Shown: positions 3,026 through 62,259 of the stretch, piece after piece
Numbering within the stretch: position 1 is the first letter of the stretch
Layout of the letters: every line of letters begins with the position of its first letter
DNA from: a virus
Lineage: Duplodnaviria > Heunggongvirae > Uroviricota > Caudoviricetes
IMG/VR virus record: IMGVR_UViG_3300028888_000086
Length of the DNA: 64,000 nt
Strand: one strand, 5' to 3'
Made by a program: the position numbers and the translations under genes
The notes under the pieces: model-generated
Database searches by the model: none
Told to the model about the DNA's origin: nothing
The model's input: the letters and a program-made list of their open reading frames with translations, nothing else

Positions 3026-4885
3026 TTATTTTTTCGATTTTCCTGCTCTAAATTTATTCTTCATTTTTTCTGTATCTTCTCTCAAACTACTACCACCAAC
3101 TCCATAACCTTCTTCATTAACAACCATAAGACCTAATCCTAATAAGTTGTTTAAGAATTTTTGGTTATCCTCTGTCGTAACTGCTTCTCTTGCTTTTTCT
3201 ATAAACGGTCTTGCATTTCTAGATAACAGAGCAGATAAATCCATCTCACTGATCTTTTGTCCTGTTACTCTATATCTACCTTGACCCATTATAGGTTCAT
3301 CTTTCTTTGGATTAATGTCATGGAAAGCATCGTTACCAAATAAGGATGAAGTTACTTTACTTGAATAAGACGGTATATGATGTAGTTCAATAAGAGTCAT
3401 CCATCCACACTGTAATTTCTTATCAACTGGGACAAATTTACCTGTCATATTTTTAACTACCTTTTCATATTCTTCAGCAGTTAAATTGGCTTTTAATTCA
3501 TCCAGGTCAGTTACAGAAGACTCAGGCATTAAAATTTGACTCTGAGATTCTACATTTAATTCAGTCATCCACTCTTCTACTTTACTAGGTGTGAATTCTG
3601 AATAACAACCTACATTAAAATAGTATACTTCTTCAATAGGTTTAGTATCATGAAGCTTTAAGAATTCATCAACACTTAATTTATCATAACGCCCTTGATA
3701 ATATTTGTTTATAAGTGGCATTATTTTATTTCTTCCTGTTTTTGTTTTCTTATATTCTTCAACCATTTCATATAATCTGTACGCTATCAAACCTAATGAT
3801 TCCTCTAATAATACACCAGCAATTTTTCTATTAATGGTACTATAAGGATTCATAACAACCTCTACCCTATATTGTTTTCCAGTATTTTTATCAACCATTA
3901 TAGGCATCAATTCATCTGGCAAAACAGTAGAAATAACACCTTTACCACCATATCTATTAGTTACTTTAGAACCTACCATAAGAGTTGTTACTTTAATTAA
4001 TCTTATTCTTACAGTATAGACAACTTTATAATCATCTCTATCCATAACAATAGGATCTAAGTTATCAGCAGCCACATACTCGGGGAACTTATCAAAAATT
4101 ATAGATCTATCCTTATTTTTGTTATATTCCTCAATTACAGGCTCAGAAGTAGTAGCAAATTTATAATCTACCTTTACTGACTTCGGAATTTTAGGTTTTT
4201 CATTTTTCTGAATTAATACGTCAGATACATAAGCCTCGTCTATATTATTTGGAACCTTATATCTCTCTTCTGTAGTATATTGTGAGAGATCCTTTTTACC
4301 TTCTTCTCCAAATAATCCACCTAATTTTTCATTAAGGGCTTTATTAATTTCATCTAATCGTCTTGCTGCAAAATATGTAACTAATGAATCTCCAGAATGT
4401 ACCTTAGTTCCAACAGGTATAATCCACTTTAAAGCAGAAGAAGTTTTTATATTTAATCTTATATCAATTAAACTATAGTGAGACATCCTTCTAGCATAAG
4501 ATTCAGATACAACTAAAGCATCTTCATTAACAAGACCAAACATAGCGTGGAATAAAACCAATGTATTTAAACCAGACTTATATGTATCTTCATTTAATCC
4601 AACAGCTCCAGTAATGATATCTCCCTTTTTAACAGTTTGACCTACTTTTACTTTAGGCTCTGTGTAAATACTAATATCATTTAAAGATTGAATTGCTGTT
4701 CTTCTATTAATATCAACAGTTTCACCATTATTGAGTTTAACTGTTACTTTATCAGAATCTATACTTACAACTTTTCCTTCATCATACTCAAATTTTTCAT
4801 TAAGTATGTTATTTTTAAGCTCTTCATCGTGTCCTGTGTCAACTAAAGGACGCTGAGCATTAACTAAAGGGATACTTTGTTTCAT
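3026..4885 (-). CDS. rpoB: RNA polymerase beta subunit, C-terminal exon (exon 2)
   Basis: MKQSIPLVNAQRPLVDTG aligns to bacterial NMQRQAVPL..EAPLVGTG. It also has NRYGGKGVIS (RHGNKGV motif), MNPYSTINRKIAG, and GQGRYRVTGQKISEMDLSAL (GGQRFGEMEVWAL). Confidence 0.9.
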   Translation of the reverse strand: MKQSIPLVNAQRPLVDTGHDEELKNNILNEKFEYDEGKVVSIDSDKVTVKLNNGETVDINRRTAIQSLNDISIYTEPKVKVGQTVKKGDIITGAVGLNEDTYKSGLNTLVLFHAMFGLVNEDALVVSESYARRMSHYSLIDIRLNIKTSSALKWIIPVGTKVHSGDSLVTYFAARRLDEINKALNEKLGGLFGEEGKKDLSQYTTEERYKVPNNIDEAYVSDVLIQKNEKPKIPKSVKVDYKFATTSEPVIEEYNKNKDRSIIFDKFPEYVAADNLDPIVMDRDDYKVVYTVRIRLIKVTTLMVGSKVTNRYGGKGVISTVLPDELMPIMVDKNTGKQYRVEVVMNPYSTINRKIAGVLLEESLGLIAYRLYEMVEEYKKTKTGRNKIMPLINKYYQGRYDKLSVDEFLKLHDTKPIEEVYYFNVGCYSEFTPSKVEEWMTELNVESQSQILMPESSVTDLDELKANLTAEEYEKVVKNMTGKFVPVDKKLQCGWMTLIELHHIPSYSSKVTSSLFGNDAFHDINPKKDEPIMGQGRYRVTGQKISEMDLSALLSRNARPFIEKAREAVTTEDNQKFLNNLLGLGLMVVNEEGYGVGGSSLREDTEKMKNKFRAGKSKK

Positions 4886-10814: not shown

Positions 10815-11120
10815 CATACAAAACATTGAATATTCCGAAAAATACTTATATTTTCATATAAGACTAGACTATATCATCATCTATATTTCAAGATGGACTG
10901 CGCTTCAAAAATAGGAATTTCACCTATTTCTTACTCCATATAGGATAGTCGTTACACCTTTTTTGATTTATAATTTCAAAACTTGGCTCGGGATTGCCAT
11001 ATTATATTTCTATAACTTAGGTTTCCCCGATAGCAGAGATTTTATTTTCTCCACACCTAGCATTTACTAGTTCACAGTCTTTGCATTATAAGATCGCTCT
11101 TATAAGTCACAAATTTCTTT
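10815..11120 (-). mobile_element. group I intron A of rpoC (family 1, no ORF, ~306 nt)
   Basis: R GGUGUAACGACUAUCC (~10943-10958) and S GAUGAUGAUAUAGUCUAG (~10867-10884) are present. The 5' exon ends CAU (U). The intron ends UGUAUG. Confidence 0.7.
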
Positions 11121-12281
11121 ATGAAGTGTAGGAGGCCTATTAATAATTACTAGTTGTTTTTCTGCAAATTCCTTAAATAATTTTTGAGTTTCAGGATTAA
11201 ATGCTTCTTCTCTAGTAGCTTTCATAGCCTCTTTGTATGTAAAGTTAAGCTCTTTCTGTAGATGTTCAATAAATTTTTCTCTAAGTAATTCATAAGCAAT
11301 AGATACAGGAATACCAATTTCATCAATCTTCAAATCTGTTGCTGGAACAATTGGACATCTTGCAGAGTTTTTTGTTCTTACTCCAAATAATTCACGGGCT
11401 AAATTTTCTTTGGAGGTATTTAATAATTCAGTAGCTTCTTTTTTACCTGTATTCAAAAAAGCTCTAAGTAATGCAGTATATCTAACTTTTTCGCCAGGAG
11501 TTTTAAAGCGGCCAATTACTTCTTCATAATTCAGGTCATTACTTTTTTTATCCTGTACACAACAAAGTCTAATAATAATACTGTACCAAACTGACAATTT
11601 ACTAGACCCTTGAGTTTTCTTACCATTTTTATATTCAAAGGTAACGGGTCTCATCATTGCAGGTAATACTAAATAATATCGATTTATAAGTTTTCTGAAT
11701 TCGTTTGCTCTTTCTGGGAAGTGTTTTTCTATAATAGCTAACAGACCTTCATAAGAACATTTAGATTCATCTGTTATAAATTCAGATATTTTTAGTTCTT
11801 TCTTTGTGGGACTATAAGTAAATTGGCAAGTATCAAAAACCTTTATAGTTAATTTCTTTCCACCACGACCAGCATATCCTAAGTTTTTGAAATCATTACC
11901 TTGGAAATCTAGTTTGATAGTACTTTCAGAAAATATATCATCAAATAATTCTTTAAATATATCAAATCTCAAGTCATTTAAGTAATAAAAAGGTAATTCT
12001 ATTCTTGCAAATCTTCTCATACCTTCCTCTCTTGTAAAAACTCTAGCTCCACAAAAAGGGCAAGGTTCATGAGAGGCTCTTTTAATTTTACCACAAATAC
12101 AACGATCTTCATAGATTGACCCGAAAGCATCAACATCATAAACTCCTCCAGGTATGGGTTCAGGATAGTTGAATTTCAGGTTAAAGTCTCTATGATCAAA
12201 TAAAACTCTATCTCGACCATCACTTCTTGTATAGTCTAATATAGCTTCATCTGTTAATAATTCTAGTGATACTTTTGACAT
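11121..12281 (-). CDS. rpoC: RNA polymerase beta' subunit exon 1 (through ...INRPPTLH)
   Basis: N-terminal Zn finger CICGKIKRASHEPCPFCG, RFARIELPFYY (RMGHIEL), INRPPTLHK (LNRAPTLHR). The annotated tail EICDL* is intron read-through. Confidence 0.9.
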
Positions 12282-13566: not shown

Positions 13567-13654
13567 GGAGAGGTGCCGAAGTTGGTCATAACGGCCTAGA
13601 CTTGAAATCTTGTGTGTCTTTATAGACCCGTGGGTTCGAATCCCACCCTCTCCG
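13567..13654 (+). tRNA. tRNA-Ser(UGA), class II with long variable arm
   Basis: Acceptor GGAGAGG/CCTCTCC, D-arm GCCG...CGGC, anticodon loop CTTGAAA, T-arm GTGGGTTCGAATCCCAC. Confidence 0.8.
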
Positions 13655-13678
13655 CTTTCAAAATAAAATAACAAAAAT

Positions 13679-34863: not shown

Positions 34864-35865
34864 TTATTTATCATTTATTAGACTGCTTGAATATTGAGAA
34901 ATTACTTGACATTCAGCTGTATTTCTAAAAGTATCTAAATCTCGAGAATTACAATATGACATAGCAGAACATAAGTAATCATGCATATTTTCTACCCATC
35001 CTTCTAAAGTATATTGTTTCTTTAATATAATTTCTCTCCCTTCTGATGTTTTTAATTCTGTAGATTTTTTACCCATTTGTTTTTGTGCTTTTTTAGTAGA
35101 CATTCCATAATAAGATACTGGATCACCTACATTTTCTCCTTTTTTAGCAGCTACAGTAAATAATTTTCCACACATTACATAATCAGCACCTAAAGCAATA
35201 CACTTTATAACCTCTGAATAACTAGAGATACCTCCATCAGCTATAATTTTACATTTACCTAATATTTTTGTTTTTATTTTTCTTATATCATCAAGTAAGG
35301 AAGCTAATGGATAGTGTACTCCAGTTTGCGTAGAAGATAAACAAGATGATCCCCCACCAATCCCCACTCTAATAAAATCCGCACCAGCATTTTCGTATTT
35401 TTCATAAGTTTCTGGATTTGCTATATTTCCTACCATTACAACAACATTAGTACCAAATTTATTTTTTAATTTTTTACATAAGTCTATTTGTTTTTTCATA
35501 TGTCCATTAGCTACATCAATTAAAATATGATATCTAATACTTTTTGCAGGTACAGGAAACTCTAATATATCTTCTACTTCTTTAATTGAAAAAGCACAAA
35601 AATATTTAGTCATTAATTCAACTCTTTTTTTAGATGATACTGTTCTAGGAATTATAACAGATATACCCAATTTATCATATTCCTTATAATTATTTTCATC
35701 TAATACACAGGACATAGGAGCAGTAATAAGAGGTAAATATTCTTCTCTTTTTCCAGTAATATCAAAACAAGTAGGATTACATTCAGATCTACTTTCAATT
35801 TCACTTATAACACTAGGAATAATACTAATATCCCTTAATGAATACAATGTTTCTTTATAAATCAT
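34864..35865 (-). CDS. guaC: GMP reductase / IMP dehydrogenase-family TIM-barrel enzyme (GuaC-like, no CBS domains)
   Basis: IDVANGH (IDVANGY), IRVGIGGGSSCLSSTQTGVHYPLASL ([27 protein letters not shown], catalytic Cys), ADGGI; ~333 aa. Confidence 0.65.
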   Translation of the reverse strand: MIYKETLYSLRDISIIPSVISEIESRSECNPTCFDITGKREEYLPLITAPMSCVLDENNYKEYDKLGISVIIPRTVSSKKRVELMTKYFCAFSIKEVEDILEFPVPAKSIRYHILIDVANGHMKKQIDLCKKLKNKFGTNVVVMVGNIANPETYEKYENAGADFIRVGIGGGSSCLSSTQTGVHYPLASLLDDIRKIKTKILGKCKIIADGGISSYSEVIKCIALGADYVMCGKLFTVAAKKGENVGDPVSYYGMSTKKAQKQMGKKSTELKTSEGREIILKKQYTLEGWVENMHDYLCSAMSYCNSRDLDTFRNTAECQVISQYSSSLINDK

Positions 35866-36012: not shown

Positions 36013-36576
36013 ATGAATTTTTATAGTTTTTATGGATTTATTGCGTTACTTACATCATTATTATTTTTAGGACAATTAGTTTTAGGTCTTATTGGCGGAC
36101 TTGATTTCGGAATTGATGTTGATGTTGATTCCGATACAGATCTAGATGTAAGTGCAGATAATGACGTTGGATTTGAGATTAGTTCTCTAGTATCACCAAA
36201 AGGAATATTACATTTCTTGCTTGGTGGGTCTTGGTATTTAGTTTTAGCTGAATATACAAGAGGAGGATCTTTAACCTGGTATGATTATTTAATAGCTATT
36301 GGAGTTGGTTTTATACTAGCTCTTATGATGGCATTGCTCTACTGGGGAATGAGTAAATTAGAGTCAGAAAAGAAAAAGGAATCCGGAGAAGATTTAGTTG
36401 GAAGAGGTGGAACTATTTATTTAGCATCGAATGAAAGTGGTATTCACATTATAACTACTGTAATAAATGGTGCCTCTACTGAATTAACCGTAAAATCTAA
36501 ATCTGGAAAAGAATATAAAACTGGTGATTTAGTTACAATCCAGAGTTATGAACAAGGAATTTATTATATTGAATAA
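36013..36576 (+). CDS. NfeD-like membrane protein (partner of SPFH/flotillin proteins)
   Basis: N-terminal TM helices, acidic linker, and C-terminal OB-like segment GRGGTIYLASNESGIHIITTVINGASTELTVKSKSGKEYKTGDLVTI. It sits immediately upstream of the flotillin gene, as in yuaF-floT. Confidence 0.65.
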   Translation: MNFYSFYGFIALLTSLLFLGQLVLGLIGGLDFGIDVDVDSDTDLDVSADNDVGFEISSLVSPKGILHFLLGGSWYLVLAEYTRGGSLTWYDYLIAIGVGFILALMMALLYWGMSKLESEKKKESGEDLVGRGGTIYLASNESGIHIITTVINGASTELTVKSKSGKEYKTGDLVTIQSYEQGIYYIE

Positions 36577-36618: not shown

Positions 36619-38781
36619 ATGAGTACACAATTAATTTTTGTGATCGTGAGTATAGTAGCATTAGTGTTACTATCGACTGTTGTACTGATCTTAACTCGGT
36701 ACAAAAAATGTAAATCAGACGAACTTCTAATCGTCTATGGTAGAACTTCAAAAAAGAAACTAAGATCTGCCAAGGATGGTGAGAAGGTTGAAATCGATTC
36801 TAGCAACTGTAAGTGCATTCAAGGTGGTGCAAAGTTTATTATCCCAGTAATTCAGGGATATTCGATCCTTAAGATGACACCGAAACAAATTGTATGTAAC
36901 TTAACGAATGCTCTTGACCTTCAAAAGATTGAGACATCGGTTAAGACTGTTATTACTGTTGCTATTTCTAAGACTCCAAGCGTTCAAATTAATGCCGCGA
37001 CTAGATTATTAGGATTAGATGACAAAGAAACTAGTTCGCTCATAAGTGAGATCTGTTTCGGTTCTTTGAGACTAGTGGTTTCTGAGATGTTACTTGAAGA
37101 TCTTGTTAATTCGAGAGATAAGTTTTTGGAACTCTGTAAGACAAGAATTGGATCTGAACTTGAAAAGATTGGTTTTGACTTAATCAATATCAATATTTCA
37201 GAAATTTCCGATAATGCTCACTACCTAGAAAATCTTGGTAAGAGTGCTGAGGCACGTGCTACATTTACTGCAAAGAGTGAGATTGAAAAGCGTACTAAGG
37301 AAGGTGAAATCGCGATAGCCACTCAGAAACAAGAGAAGGAAGTAAAACTCTCTGAAATTTCTCGTGATAAGGAAATTCAAGTTTCTGAAAACAAGAAACA
37401 GCAGGATATTAGAACTGCTGAAATTGAACGTGATAGGGTTACCACAACGGAAACAACTAAGAAGGAACAGGAAGTTTCTCTTAGGGATATCGAACGTGAG
37501 AAAAAAGTTCAAATAGCTGAGAAAGCCAAAGAGGAAACAGTTAAGATTCGTGAAGTTGAAAAGAATCAAACTTTGGAAACAGCCTCACTTGAAAGAGAAG
37601 AGGCTGAAAAGAAGTCTGAAATTGAACGTGATAAGCAAATTACTATTGCAACGAATCAGAGTGAACAAGCCCAGAAAGTGGCTGAACAAGAAAAACTTAA
37701 ACAATCTGAAGTTGCAAAACAATCTGCTGAGGCTCAAACTGCTGTTGCTACCGCTAATGCAGAACGTGATGCTAAGATTGCTGAACAAGAATCAAAATCT
37801 GAGGCGGCCCAAGCTAAATCTCGTCAAGATGCAGCAGCTAGTGTAGTAGAGGCTGAACAAAATGCTGAAGCTAGAAAAGAAACTGCTAAACAAGAGGCTA
37901 TAGCTAAGAAGAAAGAGGCTGAACAAAAATCAGAATCTGCTCAGGCTAAGGCTACTCAAGAGAAAGAAGCTCAAATAGCAGAATATGACTCTAGTCGTCG
38001 TAAGAGAACAGCTGAAGCAGATAAAACTGCTACAATTACGGAAAATACTGCTGGTATTGAAATTGCAAAATCAGATGCTCAGTTAGGTAAGGAACAAGCT
38101 GAGTCTCAGAAAATCATTGGTGAGAGTAAAGCTCAGTCTGAACAGGCTATTGGTATCGCCCAAGCCAGGAAGGATGAGGAAATTGCAGTAGCTCAGGCTA
38201 AGGCAGAAAAAGCCAAGCAGGAAGCAACTATCATGGTTGGTACTGAAATTGAGGCCGACAGAAAGAGAACTGAAGCTAAAGGTAAGAAGGATTCTACTAT
38301 TACTGAAGCTGAAGGTGAAGCCGAAGCAATTAAATTGAAAGCTTTTGCAGAAGCTGAAGCAATTAAGGCTAAAAAACTTGCAGAAGCTCAAGGAGAACTT
38401 GCTCTTGCAGAAGTACAAAAAGTACTTGAAGCAGCTAAATCCGAATCTTTGGCGAATCTTGCAAAAGCTAATGTTGCTGCAGAAGCTCAAATTAGTTGGA
38501 TTCTTAGAGATCAGTATGCTGAGATGATTGAAGCTGATTCAAAGAAATTTGAACATCTTACAACAGGTGATATCAAGATTATTGGTGGTACTGATACTGC
38601 TGGTAAGTTTTTGAAAGACACCGTTCAAGCTGTTCAACAATCTTCAATGCTCAGTGAATTTTTACCAGGTCTTGGAGGAGTTTTAGGAAAATTGGATAAA
38701 TTCGATAAAAAGAATCAAGTCCAATCGAGTGAAAATTCAGAGCAATTAGAAGCTCCAGAAGAACCTGAGTCAAAAGAATAA
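36619..38781 (+). CDS. floT: flotillin-like SPFH-domain protein with long E/A/K/Q-rich coiled coil (FloT/YuaG-like)
   Basis: N-terminal TM helix, SPFH-like region, AEAEAIKAK...AEAQ flotillin-type EA repeats, and conserved C-terminal IIGG.D. GC is ~40% against ~25% in the surroundings. Confidence 0.75.
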   Translation: MSTQLIFVIVSIVALVLLSTVVLILTRYKKCKSDELLIVYGRTSKKKLRSAKDGEKVEIDSSNCKCIQGGAKFIIPVIQGYSILKMTPKQIVCNLTNALDLQKIETSVKTVITVAISKTPSVQINAATRLLGLDDKETSSLISEICFGSLRLVVSEMLLEDLVNSRDKFLELCKTRIGSELEKIGFDLININISEISDNAHYLENLGKSAEARATFTAKSEIEKRTKEGEIAIATQKQEKEVKLSEISRDKEIQVSENKKQQDIRTAEIERDRVTTTETTKKEQEVSLRDIEREKKVQIAEKAKEETVKIREVEKNQTLETASLEREEAEKKSEIERDKQITIATNQSEQAQKVAEQEKLKQSEVAKQSAEAQTAVATANAERDAKIAEQESKSEAAQAKSRQDAAASVVEAEQNAEARKETAKQEAIAKKKEAEQKSESAQAKATQEKEAQIAEYDSSRRKRTAEADKTATITENTAGIEIAKSDAQLGKEQAESQKIIGESKAQSEQAIGIAQARKDEEIAVAQAKAEKAKQEATIMVGTEIEADRKRTEAKGKKDSTITEAEGEAEAIKLKAFAEAEAIKAKKLAEAQGELALAEVQKVLEAAKSESLANLAKANVAAEAQISWILRDQYAEMIEADSKKFEHLTTGDIKIIGGTDTAGKFLKDTVQAVQQSSMLSEFLPGLGGVLGKLDKFDKKNQVQSSENSEQLEAPEEPESKE

Positions 38782-43162: not shown

Positions 43163-45650
43163 ATGAATAGAAGAATAGTAATTATTGATCCAGAAGAAAC
43201 CCAAGATAGTGTAAAATATTGGGGATTAGGATTAGGAACTGAGATTTATTTAACAGACTCTCTCAGTAAATTAAGCGATCAAGAGTTAAAAAATGGATTA
43301 AGTTTGGGACCTACTGATGCTGCTATGTTAGTCGGTGGAGGTGGATTTAACTTCTTCTTTGAAAAAACTGGTCTTCATGCTGGGATTAGAAGTGAGAACT
43401 GGTTTGATTGTACTAAGTTAGATCGTCTTAGTGTTGAAGGTGGATCTTATGTTAAAGTTCAAGCAGATTTACCAACACTAGAAGAGATTAAGTATTTTAT
43501 GAGTCCTGAATTTACTCAAGATGTAGATTTCTCATGGTTTAAGTCTAAGGTTATTCATGATTTCCAAGGCGCTATGAGATTCTTAGATTGGTTAGATAGT
43601 TTGCCAATGGATGAAGATTTTGCGGCGGATATCGAGGCAAGTGGTTTCCCGATGGATAAATGGTATGAGTGGTCTGGTGTATCAATCTGTAATAAAAACT
43701 TTGGAGGATTTATTAGCTTTACAGATATTAGATTTACTGCAACTAAAGAACAATATGAAGAGTTATTAAAGAAGTTAGGATTCTTTCTTACTAAACGAAT
43801 GAGTCATATTTGGACTTTTAATATGGGTTATGAGTTCCTGGCGTTTCATAGGATGTTAGGAGTAGATCTTTATAATTTATGTGATGCTGGAGTTTATAAT
43901 ATACTTGACGGATACCATAAAGATAAAAAATATAGTTTAAAGTGGACTGCACAGAGAGTAGTAAAAGCAAAAGTCTGGGATACTGAATTTGATTGGATTT
44001 CTGATATAGTTGATTCAATGCTTTATACAGTTGAAGGAAAGTTGAAAAAGGAAAAACATAAAGTGCTAAAAGTAACTCCAGAAAATTATAAATTAACAAA
44101 TGAATGGAAAGCTTTATGTAATAGATATCCTGAATATGTAAATGAATTTGAATCACTTATGTCTATCTATTTTGGAAATCCTTACATGATAATTCCTAGT
44201 GAGATTTTAGGTAAGTATTGTAATTTAGATGCTTTCTATACTTTGATGATACATTTGACTGAAAAACATTTATATACAGATAAAGCTAGAGAAGTATTTT
44301 TAGATAATATGAGATTAGCAACTAGACTTCACTCGTGTGGAATGCCTAAAGATGAAGAATATAGAGCAGCTTATGAACAATACTGTAAAGAGCAATCTGC
44401 ATTTGGAATTACTTATACAGCTATGGCCCGTTGTTTCTATAAGATGGAAAAACATAAAAAACTCATGGCAAATATAGATAAGTATTCAGACGTTGCTAAA
44501 AAAATGCTATATTCAAATAGATTCTTTAATGGTGATCCTATTGCTATTACTAAAGATATCCTAATTAATAATGTAGATGAACTTGATGCTTATGAATTAG
44601 GTTTAAATGAGGGAAAGTTATTAATGGATTATGGACCTGAATTTGCCGAAAAATTTATAGAGTATACAAGAGAAGCTATGGAAGAGTGTGAGATGATTAA
44701 GCTATATAAGAAAACAGGCCAAAAAGTATTAAAAAAGAAAATAGATAATACTGTTGGTGGGAAGAAAAAACTTATACAGGTACTTAGTCAAAAAATCATA
44801 CCTTTAATTGGACTTGATAAAATAAAAATTAATAATAAACATATAGAGCTTGAAAAATATTTATATTATAAAAGAGCTTATGATGAATTAACAAACGTAG
44901 TTAATACTCAATTAGGGGATATCTATCATATTCCTAAAGAAGTATATGCATTTGGTAGAAGAATGGAATTACTTGAATATAATAATTTAATAGTTTCTGA
45001 ATATTTTAAATGTTCTTCACCTATAGAAAACGACGAAATAGCAAAAGAATTAACAGAACTATTTAAACCACAGACTATATTTCTTGCTACCATATTTACG
45101 ATGACTCAGCAACTTCCAAATGCTGAAAAATACTATAGTGAATTAGGTATTAACACAATTGAAGAAGCTTATGAACATTTTATGAGTAATTGGAAAGCTT
45201 ATGCAAATGATGGTATACCTGTAGGACAAACACAATATCCAGAACAAATTTATACAGAGGCAGGTACATTCTATAAAAACATATCTTTAGATCCAGTTAA
45301 AGATGTTTGGACTTCCTTCGATGGATATCATGCAGAGTCCCAATTTTTCAAGTATGTAGATGATCAGTATTTAGAATATGAAAAACCATTTAGTCCAAGT
45401 GATTTAGATAATATTTGGTTCTTTCATAGAAAAATGACAATTAATTATTTAAGATATAAGAAATATGAAAAGATAAGAAGTACGTATTTATGTGGAATGT
45501 TTGAAGCAACTGATAAATGGGTTCTCGAAGATCCTAATAGTCATGTTGTTATTAGAGAATGTGATGAAAATGAACCAGGAGCAATAAAAAAGATGTTTGC
45601 TCATTTCGCTTGTATGGAGAAACAAACAAAGCGCTGGTCATCGGGTGAAA
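43163..45650 (+). CDS. polA: family A DNA polymerase exon 1 (3'-5' exonuclease plus N-terminal polymerase region; exon end approximate, the ORF tail to 45679 reads into the intron)
   Basis: DIEASG (Exo I DxE) and QTKRWSSGE (TGRLSSSDP region). Confidence 0.75.
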
Positions 45651-45894
45651 TGTTAGCCCCTCTATATAGTGATATATAGAGAAAATCCTGAATATGCTGG
45701 AAACTCCTAAAGCTTTATCTACCAAAGTGTGAAAATGATAAAGATATTACAATGGACAATCAGCAGGGATAACTCTGTAAAAAGAGAAGCCCTCAACGAC
45801 TACCAAGGGACATCTAAAATAAAATTAGATGAAGGTATAGTCTAAACCCAAAATAAAATATCTCGAAAGGGAGGGTATCAATTGTATCACACAA
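45651..45894 (+). mobile_element. group I intron 1 of polA (family 1, no ORF; boundaries +/-30 nt)
   Basis: R CCUCAACGACUACC (~45790-45803) and S GAUGAAGGUAUAGUCUAAACCC (~45829-45850) on the plus strand. These are reverse complements of the rpoB/rpoC intron elements. Confidence 0.6.
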
Positions 45895-46529
45895 TAATCT
45901 CAAAATCAGATATAAAAAGTACCATTTGTTCTTATCCAGGACATTTATTAAGTTATTTTGATATAAGTTCAGCGGAGGTAAAGAGTGCTGGATTTATGTC
46001 GAAAGACGAAAACTTAATAAATATGTTTAAAAATAATATTGATGTATATATAGCAACAGCAAAATCGTATCTTCAAGATAGATGGGATACATTAACTAAA
46101 AAAGAGCAAAAAGCATTTAGAAAAACATTTAAAACTGTTACACTTGCACTTATTTACGGGCAGGGCGTTAATGCCCTAGCTAGTAGATTAAACATTACTA
46201 AGCAGGATGCTCAAGCTATTGTAGATCAAGTTTATACTTCTTATCCAAAACTTAGAGAATATATTAAAGAACAACAAGAATATCCATTACATCACAACGG
46301 AAGAGTGCGAACTTTCTTTGGAGATGTTTTGGTTGCAGAAGAATGGAAATATTATTTAAAAGCTACAGATCCATATGAAAAAAAAGCATTAGCCGCTCGA
46401 ATTGGCAGGGCTGGGAGCAACTATCCCATACAAGGTGGCACGAGCCTGGCGATGAGCAGTGGTTTCTTTAACGACCTACGAGTAGCAAAACAAGAAGGTT
46501 GGGATTTAACAAGTTTTATAACGGTCCAT
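45895..46529 (+). CDS. polA: family A DNA polymerase exon 2 (motif A through motif C His)
   Basis: SYFDISSAEVK (DYSQIELR), TLALIYGQGVNALASRL...YTSYPKLREYI (motif B/O-helix region), NYPIQGGTSLAMS, ending ...TVH| at the H of the catalytic VHDE. Confidence 0.8.
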
Positions 46530-46815
46530 AAGTAAAATTGTGGCATACTGAAGTAATTTAGTATGAAAAAGATTGTGAACTCATATATGTGAGGTGTCTA
46601 AGAAAATAAAAAATCTTAGGCTAACGGTAAAAGCTAAGTTAGAAATAATATGCTAATACCGTGCCAAGTCAGAAATGAAAGGTGTAGAGACTATCCTTTA
46701 TGGAGTAGGTTTATAGTGAAATTCTATATTCCGAAGTGCAATCCATCTTGCAATATAGATGATGATATAGTCCAGCTCTAATGGAAACATTAGGAGAAAG
46801 CGGATTCTAATACTT
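46530..46815 (+). mobile_element. group I intron 2 of polA (family 1), inserted inside motif C between His and Asp
   Basis: The 5' exon ends CAU. R GGUGUAGAGACUAUCC (~46678-46693) and S GAUGAUGAUAUAGUCCAGC (~46759-46777) are nearly identical to rpoC intron A. The 3' end is approximate. Confidence 0.6.
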
Positions 46816-47227: not shown

Positions 47228-48850
47228 TTATTTGGTTTTATATGTATTAATCTCTTTTATCAGACCCTCTTTATTAGTTATTATTGGCGAAAAATAATTT
47301 GATATGCTATTATTTATAAGTACTTTCTCTTCTTTTCCAGCACCAGATAAATTGGGATCATAATAATAAAGAATTTTTATATTGTGTTGATTACATAAAT
47401 TATACTTTGTTAAATCTCTTTTATACCCTTCATTAAATGCTAGTAAACCTCCAAAATAATCTACTGGAATAAAATGTTGATCTCCATGAGCTTCTATAGC
47501 TATGTTAAAGTCTTCTAAATAAAAATCTAGTTTTAAATTTTTATTATATTTTAGCCACGTAAATGTTTTCTGAAAGTGATATTTTATTTTTAGTTCGTCT
47601 AATATCTCTCTAACTGAGTTTTCTAGCATTGAAATTATTTCATCTACATATACTAATTGTTCAGGAAGTGTTAATGATTTTCGATAAAGAGAATAGTATC
47701 TCTTTTGAAATTCCGATGGATTTTTTATATTATTTGTATTTATAAACTCTTGAAATTCTTGTACAGTATTTATATTATCAATTAATCCATTTGGTAAAAA
47801 TTTTTGTATTCTATTTGGATAGATAACTTTTGAAGTTAGTTTAAGATGTGTTAGCCTACTATAGATATCATTAAATCTTTTTCTAAAATCAGAAGGAGAT
47901 TGTATATTTTCTTTATTTATCAATTCTTGGAAGTCTGTTTCAGAATTGTACTTTTTTAATTCTGAATTAGATTTTGGTCTTAAAGGAAACTCTAATTTTG
48001 AATCCCACTTATTTCTTAGTATTTTAGCATACATAGACATATTAGACCTTCTTATTTCATCTAAATATACTATTTTATTTACTATTATATAATTTTGTAT
48101 ATAATCAAAAGTATATAAATCTAATTCCGAGTTTTGTAATTTTAATTCTGTATATCCAACATCTTCAGATTTTATGCCAAGCTTCCTCATACGTTTATCA
48201 ACTTTAGGGAACCTATTTAACATATCAGCTACATTCTTAATATTATTCTCTTCTATGAATTTCTTGAAGTCTTCAATTGTATTTAATTTCGAAGTATCTA
48301 ACCATCCAGGAAATGTTAATAGTCTATTTCCCTTCTTAAGATATCCAAAGTCCAGTGCCCATTTATACTCAGTTTTATAATTTTCTCGAAAGTCCTTTGG
48401 GCTAGATATATTATTATCGTTAATAAACTTCTGAAATTCTTCTATAGATCTTAATTTATTTTCCCTTTCGTATTTTAATGGATTTTTATATTTTATCTCT
48501 TTAGCTAGATGTTTTCCAACTAATTTTTTATATGTTGAGGGAAATCTGGAATTAAAGTCTGAATAATTCTCTATATTGTTCTCGTCAACAAATTTTTGAA
48601 AGTCTTCTAAATTATTCAGATTTTTATTCGTTTTAAAATCTCTAGTCTTTTCAGTATACACTACATCATCATTGAACTTCAGATATTTAAGTCTACTATG
48701 AACCTTAAGATATCTTTTCTTTAAATCAGAGTTACTTTTTATATTGTTATTCGCAATAAATCTCTGAAAATGATCTAATTCTGTGAAATCTTTTGCATTT
48801 ATTTCATCATTAGATACTCCAATTTTGTCAAAACTTTTTATATTATTCAT
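47228..48850 (-). CDS. homing-endonuclease-like protein: 6 N-terminal ~40-aa repeats plus C-terminal Vsr/PD-(D/E)xK-like nuclease (paralog of the rpoC intron ORF nuclease domain)
   Basis: Repeat (L/I)E(D/E)FQKFI.ENNI....DF..R(F/Y) occurs 6 times. The C-terminus has LKLDFYLEDFNIAIEAHGDQHF. Confidence 0.7.
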   Translation of the reverse strand: MNNIKSFDKIGVSNDEINAKDFTELDHFQRFIANNNIKSNSDLKKRYLKVHSRLKYLKFNDDVVYTEKTRDFKTNKNLNNLEDFQKFVDENNIENYSDFNSRFPSTYKKLVGKHLAKEIKYKNPLKYERENKLRSIEEFQKFINDNNISSPKDFRENYKTEYKWALDFGYLKKGNRLLTFPGWLDTSKLNTIEDFKKFIEENNIKNVADMLNRFPKVDKRMRKLGIKSEDVGYTELKLQNSELDLYTFDYIQNYIIVNKIVYLDEIRRSNMSMYAKILRNKWDSKLEFPLRPKSNSELKKYNSETDFQELINKENIQSPSDFRKRFNDIYSRLTHLKLTSKVIYPNRIQKFLPNGLIDNINTVQEFQEFINTNNIKNPSEFQKRYYSLYRKSLTLPEQLVYVDEIISMLENSVREILDELKIKYHFQKTFTWLKYNKNLKLDFYLEDFNIAIEAHGDQHFIPVDYFGGLLAFNEGYKRDLTKYNLCNQHNIKILYYYDPNLSGAGKEEKVLINNSISNYFSPIITNKEGLIKEINTYKTK

Positions 48851-49178: not shown

Positions 49179-50885
49179 ATGAAGTTTTTGCGCTTTATAA
49201 GTTTGTTTAGCTTTATATATGAGAGAAAAAACTTAATATATATGATAGATAAAGAAACTTTTACTAATGAGATAGAAAAATTAGAAACAACGAAAGAAAA
49301 GGGAGATTATTTTTTAGAAGTATTATCTAAAGAGTTTTTTCCAGAAGAGGAGATTACTTTCTTAGATGGCTCAGGTGATGGAGGAATTGATGCTTATTTT
49401 ACTTGTATCGATGAAAATATAAGTAAATGGTCTATAATACAATCTAAACATGGAAGTTCTTATAAAGGTACTGATTCCATTTGTTGTGATTTTTCTAAAA
49501 TATTTATACACCTAGAAGATAAAGAGTATTATGGAAAAGATAATGTATTTTTATATTTAAGAGATTTTATAAAAGAATCTAGTGAAAAAATAATTATACT
49601 CTATCTTTTAACAGATAATAAAATAAGTGACTCTGAATTAAATTCATTCAAAACAATAAAAAATATATTTTCTGAACGATATAATATTAAATTTGAAGTT
49701 GAAAATTTATATCCTGATCTATTATATGAAAAAACATCTACAGAAAAGATATATAATATTGAATTACCTGGAAATTTTATAAAAGATGATGGATCTGGGG
49801 AACTAGTAGGAAAAGTAAAAATTAGTGATTTATTTAATTTCATGAAGAATTTTAAATCACTAGCTGGCGATATTAAATTATTATATAAATCAAATATTCG
49901 TCTTTACTTATCAAATAAACTAGCAAAAGCCATAGCTAGTACACTTAGTAATGATCCTGATAAATTTTTTGAATATAATAATGGAATAACAATTCTTACT
50001 AATGGAATAAATTATAATGAAAAAGGAGTATTAATTTTATGTAATCCTGATTGTAACAATGGATGTCAAACATCATTGACTATCTATAAATATATTGAAA
50101 ATTCTAAAATAGTTCCTAATTCTAATTTATGTGTTACTATAATTGATATTTCTAAAAAATCAAAAGAAGAAATAGTAAAAATAACAGAATGTAGAAATAA
50201 ACAAACAGCTGTAAAATCTGTTGGAAGTATATTTGTTCTGGATAAAAGAGTTGAGGAAATAAAAAACATACTTAAAAATGATTATGGAAAAATATTACAG
50301 ACTAAAAAAGGAGAATATAGTCCTAAAAAGATCGATTTTGTAGATTTAATGAGTATGTGTTTTTGTATAATTGATGGTACTCCTGGTATAGCTAAATTAA
50401 AAAATGCCGAACACTATAATTCTAAAACAGGTGATGATTTTATAACAAAATTAAAAGATGATAGAGAATTATTATTATTGAGTTATAGATTAGCGGAGAT
50501 TTGTGAATTACTTAATAAAAGATCATATAAATATCGAGTAGAGAGTTTAAGATATGCTCAAATATCAATTCTTTACACAATACTAGAAAAAGCTGTTGGA
50601 TCTGATAAAGGAAAAATGTTAAAAATACTCAATGACAATGATTTATATGATTATTTTATGAAATCAGCTACTGGATTAATCAGAATATATACAGATATTA
50701 AATCAAGGACAAAGGCAAAGTTTTTGTTTGATTATGAGAATGTAGATAATTTAGAAAGATTGAGTAAGTTATTAGATTTAAATACATCTCCAAAATTAAA
50801 TGAATTAATATCTAGTTGGTTTGAATTTACTTATAAAGAAAAAACTGATATTATAGATAAAGTTGAAAAAATATTAAAAAGTTAA
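49179..50885 (+). CDS. AIPR-like abortive-infection / PD-(D/E)xK nuclease-family protein (true start probably the Met of MIDKETF at ~49242, downstream of the promoter motif at 49208-49224)
   Basis: The N-terminus has GSGDGGIDAYFTCIDEN...IIQSKH (D..E.K nuclease-like signature) followed by a long alpha-helical body, matching AIPR architecture. Confidence 0.5.
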   Translation: MKFLRFISLFSFIYERKNLIYMIDKETFTNEIEKLETTKEKGDYFLEVLSKEFFPEEEITFLDGSGDGGIDAYFTCIDENISKWSIIQSKHGSSYKGTDSICCDFSKIFIHLEDKEYYGKDNVFLYLRDFIKESSEKIIILYLLTDNKISDSELNSFKTIKNIFSERYNIKFEVENLYPDLLYEKTSTEKIYNIELPGNFIKDDGSGELVGKVKISDLFNFMKNFKSLAGDIKLLYKSNIRLYLSNKLAKAIASTLSNDPDKFFEYNNGITILTNGINYNEKGVLILCNPDCNNGCQTSLTIYKYIENSKIVPNSNLCVTIIDISKKSKEEIVKITECRNKQTAVKSVGSIFVLDKRVEEIKNILKNDYGKILQTKKGEYSPKKIDFVDLMSMCFCIIDGTPGIAKLKNAEHYNSKTGDDFITKLKDDRELLLLSYRLAEICELLNKRSYKYRVESLRYAQISILYTILEKAVGSDKGKMLKILNDNDLYDYFMKSATGLIRIYTDIKSRTKAKFLFDYENVDNLERLSKLLDLNTSPKLNELISSWFEFTYKEKTDIIDKVEKILKS

Positions 50886-61770: not shown

Positions 61771-61774
61771 TGTG

Positions 61775-61848
61775 TCGGAACGAAAGGATTTGAACCTTCG
61801 ACATCTTGGTCCCAAACCAAGCATTCTACCGAGCTGAATTACGTTCCG
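61775..61848 (-). tRNA. tRNA-Pro(UGG)
   Basis: Acceptor CGGAACG/CGTTCCG, anticodon arm CTTGG TTTGGGA CCAAG, T-arm GAAGGTTCAAATCCTTT. Confidence 0.8.
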
Positions 61849-61876
61849 AAGTTTTTTGTTATTTGTTTTGAAAATG

Positions 61877-61962
61877 CGGAGGCTACTGGGCTCGAACCAG
61901 TGCGTCCTTTCAGACCTACCAGTTTAGCAAACTGGCCCCTTCACCAACTTGGGTAAGCCTCC
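61877..61962 (-). tRNA. tRNA-Ser(GCU), class II
   Basis: Acceptor GGAGGCT/AGCCTCC, anticodon arm CCAGT TTGCTAA ACTGG, long variable arm, T-arm CTGGTTCGAGCCCAG. Confidence 0.8.
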
Positions 61963-61979
61963 ATTTGTTATTTATCTTG

Positions 61980-62052
61980 AGTAGTAGACGGGTCTCGAAC
62001 CCGCGACCTCGAACTTGGAAGGATCGCGCTCTACCAACTGAGCTACTACTAC
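61980..62052 (-). tRNA. tRNA-Gly(UCC)
   Basis: Acceptor GTAGTAG/CTACTAC, D-arm GCTCAGTTGGTAGAGC, anticodon loop CTTCCAA, T-arm GCGGGTTCGAGACCCGT. Confidence 0.75.
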
Positions 62053-62078
62053 TTGTTATATTTATGATGTGAAACTTT

Positions 62079-62162
62079 TTACAAATAGTAGAAGTGGGTG
62101 GATTCGAACCACCGAACCTATAAAGGAGCGGATTTACAGTCCGCCGCAATTGACCAACTATG
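62079..62162 (-). tRNA. tRNA-Tyr(GUA), bacterial-type with long variable arm
   Basis: Acceptor AGAGGTG/CACTTCT (one G.U), anticodon arm GCGGA CTGTAAA TCCGC, T-arm GGTGGTTCGAATCCACC. Confidence 0.75.
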
Positions 62163-62259
62163 CGACACCTCTACAATCACCAACTATAAGGATTTCAAGG
62201 CTTTCAAACTGCAATAAATAAAATATAAAATAAAGGGATAGAATAAATCCCTTTATCAA

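Follow-up and report, generated by a model that had tools for sequence, protein, structure and literature searches.

The 64,000-nt stretch of viral DNA analyzed here (hereafter the window) belongs to IMG/VR record IMGVR_UViG_3300028888_000086, a member of the Caudoviricetes. It carries a gene of the superfamily formed by inosine monophosphate (IMP) dehydrogenase (IMPDH, GuaB) and guanosine monophosphate (GMP) reductase (GMPR, GuaC). Judged from its sequence, this gene is a real and intact member of the family that lacks CBS domains, and it belongs to an old and large lineage that is restricted to phages. We predict that the enzyme of this clade is probably an NAD(P)H-dependent GMP reductase acting as a phage auxiliary metabolic gene, for which we infer substrate, cofactor, direction of the reaction and physiological benefit. 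The gene is located as follows:

34864..35865, minus strand, GMPR-like gene: complete open reading frame (ORF) of 333 amino acids, from ATG to TAA; its product is a CBS-less (beta/alpha)8 barrel in the IMPDH/GMPR superfamily, PHROG 9582 clade

The ORF presents no internal stop codon. A first-pass annotation of the same DNA had described this ORF and quoted the segments IDVANGH, GIGGGSSC...TGVHYP and ADGGI, and all of them were recovered in the translation, at residues I116-H122, G168-C175-P186 (TGVHYP ends at P186) and A209-I213. The Pfam family PF00478 (IMPDH/GMPR) matched the protein with 120.7 bits (E = 9e-35), well above its gathering cutoff of 25.6, which places it in the superfamily. The PHROG 9582 profile, labeled "dehydrogenase", matched with E = 4.7e-58 and aligned residues 5-323 to profile positions 7-336 of 353. 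A total of 88 distinct PDB sequences matched at E ≤ 0.01 using HMMER. The best of these was the GMP reductase of Bacillus anthracis (1ypf, E = 4.6e-28, residues 7-316), with the CBS-less 3r2g of Legionella and human GMPR2 next in rank. On these scores, the similarity to the superfamily is far beyond chance, and identity to cellular enzymes is low (about 25-30%). The annotation's description of a protein of ~333 residues without a CBS pair agrees with our results, since the Pfam scan found no CBS (Bateman) domain in the protein and the CBS insertion of E. coli GuaB faces a gap in our MAFFT alignment. Finally, no Shine-Dalgarno sequence is present at the start codon, as is often the case in Bacteroidota and the phages that infect them, and scanning for promoters and terminators near the gene revealed no excess of sites over shuffled sequence.

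The active site of the protein is built from the following motifs (for the clade as a whole, motif statistics were computed from 349 non-identical sequences and invariance was scored in a family alignment of 64 sequences):

35500..35520, minus strand, strand/loop motif I116-D-V-A-N-G-H122, common to GMPR (LDVANGY) and IMPDH; D117, A119, N120 and G121 do not vary within the clade
35308..35364, minus strand, active-site Cys loop G168-IGGGSSCLSSTQTGVHY-P186; the C175 codon is at 35341-35343
35230..35241, minus strand, ribose-binding Asp motif A209-D-G-G212; D210, G211 and G212 are invariant
35095..35112, minus strand, purine-binding loop Y252-Y-G-M-S-T257; FYGMSS in human GMPR2 and YRGMGS in IMPDH
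35038..35052, minus strand, end of the flap K272-T-S-E-G276; E275 is equivalent to Glu289 of GMPR and Glu431 of IMPDH

The first-pass annotation had named a poorly conserved catalytic Cys loop as the result that would overturn it. We found the opposite: HMMER paired C175 with the active-site Cys found in 1ypf, 3r2g and human GMPR2, and C175 is invariant in the family alignment. Indeed, this alignment contains 58 columns that are invariant among the 64 relatives, and these include every catalytic motif, among them E275 and the YGMS loop. The larger set gave a similar picture: ADGG is present in 338 of the 349 sequences, and nearly all of them carry [KR]-T-[SA]-E-G and Y-x-G-M-S. The residue at +2 from the catalytic Cys is Thr in 84% of the clade and Ser in 12%; S177 of the window protein occupies the position of GMPR Thr188, and Ser for Thr is a conservative change. 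At +3, S178 stands where the canonical CTTR or CITK motif presents Arg or Lys. The loop signature of the clade can be written C-L/T/I-T/S-S/T/A, and its +3 residue is never Arg or Lys.

The flap distinguishes the two activities of the superfamily. The GMPR of E. coli requires Cys186, Thr188 and Glu289 (Min et al. 2008, PMC2525682), of which the Thr is kept in all IMPDHs and GMPRs (PMC2525682). GMPRs differ from IMPDHs by a truncated flap without the water-activating dyad Arg418-Tyr419, and loss of Arg418 reduces hydrolysis ~1000-fold (PMC2525682). In the window protein, the spacing from GMS to EG is 17 residues, as in E. coli GuaC, relative to 24 in E. coli GuaB, and the Arg-Tyr dyad is absent from the flaps of all 349 clade sequences, the window protein included. 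The protein thus presents the sequence properties of the GMPR class: a Cys/Thr(Ser)/Glu triad, no CBS domains and a truncated flap without the dyad. Many clade members also carry insertions at a hot spot just past residue ~238, where the finger or flap has its base. The insertion is ~85 residues long in the Lak megaphages (Lak-B5, L145:3001-4227) and reaches up to ~400 residues in a 737-residue homolog (P0259). No recognizable domain was found in the flap-base insertions of these long homologs.

Inteins provide a further indication of constraint on the Cys loop. At least 11 clusters contain an intein or Hint domain inserted exactly before the catalytic Cys (...GGGAA | C...HN | CLTSTQT...), in relatives P0029, P0083, P0091, P0099, P0109, P0117, P0120, P0159, P0206, P0211 and P0265, and also at L106:6001-6819. 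These inserts are mini-inteins and Hint domains, and the window copy has none. Because the intein sits directly before the catalytic Cys, the position of Cys175 is also the +1 extein (splice) nucleophile. Active-site motifs that a protein cannot do without are characteristic places for intein insertion, so the presence of inteins in the Cys loop suggests selection for a functional enzyme and a strong constraint on this loop. We also searched long homologs for informative domain fusions; these proved to be intein carriers or to have unannotated insertions.

We built an AlphaFold2 model of the window protein from the 64 relatives. The model is confident overall (mean predicted local distance difference test score of 91.2, predicted template modeling score of 0.91), and low-confidence stretches are confined to residues 170-174 (Cys loop) and ~250-280 (flap), which are the mobile elements of IMPDH/GMPR enzymes. 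Foldseek returned CBS-deleted IMPDH structures as top matches, with template modeling (TM) scores of ~0.8 both to such catalytic domains and to human GMPR2 in complex with IMP and NADPH. The catalytic Cys is located on the loop after strand 6, with C175 aligned to the Cys of 1ypf, 3r2g and 2a7r. With this predicted model, we consider the (beta/alpha)8 fold certain. We did not retain the fold search as a discriminator of activity, as Foldseek cannot tell IMPDH from GMPR.

Sequence profiles were more discriminating. Among NCBIfam models, the GMPR type-2 equivalogs ranked first, followed by type-1 GMPR and then IMPDH, and the type-2 equivalogs aligned end to end (positions 6-319 of a 327-position model). 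All scores were below the respective cutoffs: 128.4 bits against 344 for NF003966, 119.7 against 465.65 for TIGR01306, 99.8 against 397 for NF003470 and 98.4 against 492.15 for TIGR01305. The IMPDH equivalog scored 87.6 bits relative to a cutoff of 481.5; with neither the dyad nor CBS domains, the protein does not qualify as a GuaB. When a profile of the clade was compared to PDB sequences, it matched 3r2g with 129 bits, human GMPR2 and B. anthracis GuaC with 125 bits each and human GMPR1 with 122 bits, and every true IMPDH with at most 107 bits. The hidden Markov model (HMM) of the clade scored its own members at 262 bits or more, canonical GMPRs at 144 bits or less and GuaB at 73 bits.

The first-pass annotation had called for a phylogeny against GuaC and GuaB, and in our tree the window protein falls in neither. 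We used neighbor-joining on 60 sequences and 322 columns with 300 bootstraps. The tree recovered the GMPR1, GMPR2, GuaB and GuaB3-like groups, each in 298-300 of the 300 replicates, and the window protein formed a separate, phage-restricted clade with gp050 of cr108_1 and 40-odd metagenomic representatives (298/300). A protein of Thermus phage YS40 was found as a weak sister of this clade (187/300). With a separate clade and scores that miss the equivalog cutoffs, the name "GMP reductase" expresses a functional inference, not orthology. The earlier label "GMP reductase-like" consequently stands for the CBS-less barrel and the GMPR-like active site, and it does not stand as a statement of orthology. 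Bacteroides phage DAC19_247 was considered as a cultured carrier and rejected: its protein lies on a separate branch and the Glu motif SEG is missing. This more degenerate IMPDH/GMPR-like protein, annotated as hypothetical (DAC19 gene 247, L144:3893-4867), is found in the DAC/SJC group of cultured phages that infect B. thetaiotaomicron, and its Cys loop is kept as GGGVCATK.

The clade is large. An exhaustive HMMER search over 1.84 billion representatives yielded 475 clusters (50% identity) at E ≤ 1e-30, and the best 150 all scored above 212 bits. A motif-guided scan of IMG/VR confirmed at least 570 loci, many of them on contigs of 90-400 kb. Among one genome per species for 185,579 prokaryotic species, a scan of nearly the same design found only ~16 clade members, all in metagenome-assembled genomes (MAGs) from gut or rumen, and several of these are on 290-370 kb contigs that resemble mis-binned phages. 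Below these ~16, the scan returned ordinary GuaB and GuaB3-like genes with 22-31% identity. With at least 570 IMG/VR loci against ~16 MAGs, the clade is essentially restricted to phages. Its carriers among GenBank phages, all of them uncultured, are the crAss-like phage cr108_1, the LR75xxxx huge phages and every Lak megaphage.

We propose that the enzyme would act as follows. Cys175 would attack C2 of GMP, and ammonia would depart through a proton relay formed by Ser177 (Thr in most of the clade) and Glu275, leaving a covalent enzyme-xanthosine monophosphate intermediate (E-XMP*). Hydride transfer from NAD(P)H to E-XMP* would then release IMP. The absence of the Arg-Tyr flap dyad suggests that E-XMP* is not efficiently hydrolyzed to xanthosine monophosphate (XMP), and this points to the GMPR rather than the IMPDH direction. 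In the infected cell, guanine nucleotides, released for instance by the breakdown of host RNA or DNA, would be converted to IMP, from which host PurA and PurB would produce AMP, yielding a purine supply fitted to a phage of 27% G+C. Such a role in purine-pool rebalancing, which the first-pass annotation had also suggested, is plausible given the base composition of the carriers, which are A+T-rich: the G+C content of carrier loci ranges from 24 to 47%, with a median of 32%. We also measured the G+C content of cultured phages with a GMPR-type gene, and obtained 38% for Cr30, 42% for RAS14, 49% for XacN1, 33% for YS40 and 30% for G. These values lie far under those of the hosts, which range from ~38 to 69% overall and from ~65 to 69% for Cr30, RAS14, XacN1 and YS40.

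Several observations weigh against this interpretation. The scores lie far under every NCBIfam cutoff for GMPR equivalogs, which means that the protein does not qualify as a GuaC ortholog. The phage clade stands apart in the tree, joining GMPR2 in no more than 21-70 of the 300 replicates and GMPR1 in one, and the deeper order among the phage clade, GMPR1, GMPR2 and IMPDH is not settled by neighbor-joining. In the active site, the window protein has Ser177 where Thr is "universal" in IMPDHs and GMPRs, and the lack of Arg or Lys at +3 throughout the clade suggests that cofactor or substrate handling may differ. There is no purine-pathway partner in the 64-kb window, where the direct neighbors of the gene are unrelated small or membrane proteins. 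The low G+C content of cultured phages that independently acquired GMPR-type genes, which speaks for the proposed role, is a correlation that comes without a control set. Finally, we found no paper on the clade; our literature searches returned only passing mentions of phage GMPR- or IMPDH-like genes and no functional study.

The same Cys chemistry could be applied to another purine nucleotide, such as dGMP, XMP or a modified guanine nucleotide, in DNA modification or pool sanitation. The distance between clade members and canonical GMPRs on the clade HMM is consistent with this possibility, as is the clade-specific Ser, Thr or Ala at +3 in place of Arg or Lys. Neighboring genes are also often dUTPase, thymidylate synthase, metallophosphoesterase or HD-domain proteins rather than purine genes. 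However, ADGG, YGMS and the ammonia-handling Glu are kept exactly as in GMPR, the neighborhood is variable, and no recognizable modification enzyme is consistently linked to the gene. Another purine substrate seems doubtful to us. It is also conceivable that the protein is a minimal "ancestral-type" IMPDH, converting IMP to XMP with hydrolysis of E-XMP* through the Thr/Glu relay alone. The Thr321-Glu431 water-activation pathway, which was proposed as the sole pathway of the primordial enzyme (Min et al., PMC2525682), uses the Cys, Thr/Ser and Glu that this protein possesses, and CBS-deleted IMPDHs are the top Foldseek matches. We consider this quite unlikely: the dyad is absent from a flap of GMPR length, and loss of Arg418 costs ~1000-fold in hydrolysis (PMC2525682). 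Moreover, sequence profiles prefer GMPRs by ~20 bits, and a phage of 27% G+C has little need for extra guanine nucleotides. More broadly, we think it unlikely that the phage clade represents a functionally distinct third branch of the superfamily, either as a deoxy- or modified-guanine enzyme or as an "atavistic" Thr/Glu-relay IMPDH. In the first case, the enzyme would feed a DNA-modification or pool-sanitizing pathway together with the dUTPase and thymidylate-synthase-like genes that often adjoin it, and in either case the C-L-T/S-S signature and the variable flap-base insertions would mark a new specificity.

Two further explanations carry little weight. Over residues 127-244, Pfam also gave partial matches to FMN_dh (E = 3e-11) and to Glu_synthase (E = 5e-7), which might indicate an oxidoreductase dependent on flavin mononucleotide, or another TIM barrel resembling IMPDH/GMPR. 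These matches span only the shared phosphate-binding strands, and the IMPDH/GMPR match is much stronger, with GMPR models aligned over their full length. The Cys loop, YGMS and SEG motifs, which are specific to IMPDH/GMPR, are also invariant, and such an oxidoreductase is very unlikely. The identity of ~25-30% to cellular enzymes and the unrelated neighbors in the window could also be expected of a captured host gene that survives as a remnant, decaying or non-catalytic. Yet the ORF is intact and no frameshift or active-site substitution was seen in close relatives. The 58 invariant columns over 64 relatives, the 475 clusters at E ≤ 1e-30 and the maintenance of inteins in the active site likewise make a remnant extremely unlikely.

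Returning to the GMP reductase interpretation, we compared the window protein to named members of the superfamily. The type-2 GMPRs (GuaC of Bacillus and Staphylococcus; TIGR01306/NF003966; 1ypf) share with it a length of ~330 residues, the lack of CBS domains, an end-to-end alignment, the N-terminal "SRSEC", D-x-A-x-G-H, GN(V/I), the catalytic Cys, ADGG, G-x-x-F and E-G. They differ in that identity is only ~27-30%, the window protein reaches 120-128 bits against cutoffs of 344-466 and it falls in a separate clade. Type-2 enzymes possess CITK and YFGSAS, whereas the Cys loop here is CL(T/S)S and the window protein carries YYGMST with a flap that is 7 residues longer. The type-1 GMPRs (E. coli GuaC, human GMPR1 and GMPR2; TIGR01305; 2c6q, 2a7r, 2ble) resemble the window protein in their 17-residue GMS-EG flap, YGMS(S/T), (R/K)-x-S-E-G, the Cys/Thr/Glu triad and the lack of an Arg-Tyr dyad (PMC2525682). 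In contrast, identity to type 1 is ~25% and the HMMER alignment is limited to the C-terminal two thirds; the window protein has Ser where CTTR presents Arg at +3, and its hairpin before YGMS is shorter. GuaB (TIGR01302) has a similar barrel (TM ~0.8), Cys loop, ADGG and GM(G/S)S; the window protein lacks its CBS pair and Arg-Tyr dyad and presents a flap that is 7 residues shorter. The CBS-less "IMPDH" of Legionella pneumophila (3r2g) was the best PDB match of the clade profile (129 bits, full length) and shares the GIGGGS-x-C loop, Y-R-GMAS and K-T-A-E-G. Unlike the phage proteins, it keeps the canonical CSTR, and it groups with the phage clade in none of the 300 bootstraps. To our knowledge, the activity of this Legionella protein has not been established.

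Within PHROG 9582, the window protein is 45% identical to cr108_1 gp050 and 33% to the Lak protein, with the same motifs. It differs from other members in having Ser rather than Thr at +2 and in lacking the Lak insertion of ~85 residues, and its gene lies outside any nucleotide-metabolism cluster, unlike that of cr108_1. Host-like GMPRs are encoded by XacN1 (ORF403), RAS14, Cr30 and phage G (gp120), with the same presumed auxiliary role in phages whose G+C content is below that of the host. XacN1 ORF403 (Xanthomonas) is 46% identical to E. coli GuaC, gp120 of phage G (Bacillus) groups with the GuaC of B. anthracis and S. aureus, and RAS14 (Stenotrophomonas) and Cr30 (Caulobacter) carry similar canonical genes. 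Sequence relationships suggest that these host-like GMPRs are recent captures of canonical GuaC and that the window gene derives from an old phage-specific lineage. Since annotated GMPRs exist in cultured phages, a phage-borne GMPR gene is an already known kind of auxiliary gene, and what we describe is not a new kind of system.

The neighborhood of the gene is not conserved and varies across the clade. Downstream of it in the window, a 134-residue membrane-protein ORF on the same strand is unrelated to the GMPR-like gene, and two genes are found upstream:

36013-36576, plus strand, NfeD-like membrane protein, upstream of and divergent from the GMPR-like gene
36619-38781, plus strand, SPFH/Band-7 (flotillin-like) protein of 720 amino acids with a very long, charged, Glu/Lys/Ala-rich coiled-coil

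None of these neighbors qualified as a conserved partner. A downstream ORF of 134 residues is present in the window and two relatives, and the three proteins are not homologous. The NfeD/SPFH pair is common only to the closest relative, a 380-kb contig on which the two proteins have 185 and 692 residues. The only other recognizable candidate for a purine or nucleotide-pool enzyme in the 64-kb window is a metallophosphoesterase. We also considered a conserved operon and rejected it: across 59 de-replicated loci, dUTPase, glycosyltransferases, metallophosphoesterase, PhoH and HD proteins occur in sublineages only, and clustering of the neighbors at these loci returned no purA, purB, guaA or guaB.

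Links to nucleotide metabolism were nevertheless found in some carriers. One sublineage (~7-10 of the 59 loci) presents a dUTPase on the same strand, up to ~50 nt upstream. In cr108_1, the GMPR-like gene overlaps a thymidylate synthase gene within a module that contains ribonucleotide reductase, dUTPase, PolA and thioredoxin. The "thymidylate synthase" gp049 is unusually long (358 amino acids), and it overlaps the start of the GMPR-like gp050 by 8 nt (gp049-gp050, L001:6932-9032), which suggests translational coupling. The homologs in phages YS40 and G lie near ThyX or ThyA, dUTPase, dihydrofolate reductase and thymidine kinase.

The window has a G+C content of 27.5%, and no nucleotide-level match of the region to GenBank phages was found. 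Its closest relative on a long contig (P0006, 86% identity) is on an NCBI contig of 379,862 bp whose local gene order matches that of the window, and further relatives are on contigs of 200-400 kb. From these contigs, the most fitting reading is that the window is a portion of a huge (jumbo) phage genome, and the carrier phage probably belonged to a gut or rumen community. The majority of window ORFs have no family match. Besides the genes discussed above, the window encodes two large helicases, DNA polymerase A, a Thg1-like protein, an HNH homing endonuclease and five tRNAs. The features that we located are:

3026-4885, minus strand, Rpb2 domain 6 fragment of a split multisubunit RNA polymerase
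11100-12281, minus strand, Rpb1 domain 2 fragment of a split multisubunit RNA polymerase
13567-13655, plus strand, tRNA Ser-TGA, standing alone
49179-50885, plus strand, AIPR (abortive-infection phage-resistance) domain protein, in an apparent phage genome
52419-55847, plus strand, helicase of 1142 amino acids fused to a Methyltransf_8-like C-terminal domain, after the AIPR gene
61774-62172, minus strand, tRNA cluster Pro-TGG, Ser-GCT, Gly-TCC and Tyr-GTA

The split RNA polymerase pieces are as in jumbo phages with their own RNA polymerase, and the Thg1-like tRNA-His guanylyltransferase is encoded among the small ORFs of the window. In the polymerase region (43163-46535, plus strand, and 47228-48850, minus strand), one small ORF matches DNA_pol_A with E = 7e-25. 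The window presents ORFs of 838 and 217 amino acids here, beside a 540-residue HNH homing endonuclease, where the P0006 contig presents a single PolA of 1053 amino acids; the polymerase gene of the window may be split or interrupted.

Our results suggest that members of the clade now annotated as "dehydrogenase" or "hypothetical" can be upgraded to "GMP reductase-like, phage clade". Three kinds of GMPR-type gene, namely host-like type 1, host-like type 2 and the old phage clade, are found in phages whose G+C content is well under that of their hosts. If the predicted conversion of GMP to IMP is correct, this gene would be among the more widespread purine auxiliary genes of huge and crAss-like phages of the gut and rumen, with at least 570 IMG/VR contigs, and it would provide A+T-rich phages with a concrete route to reshape the guanine-richer nucleotide pool of their hosts.

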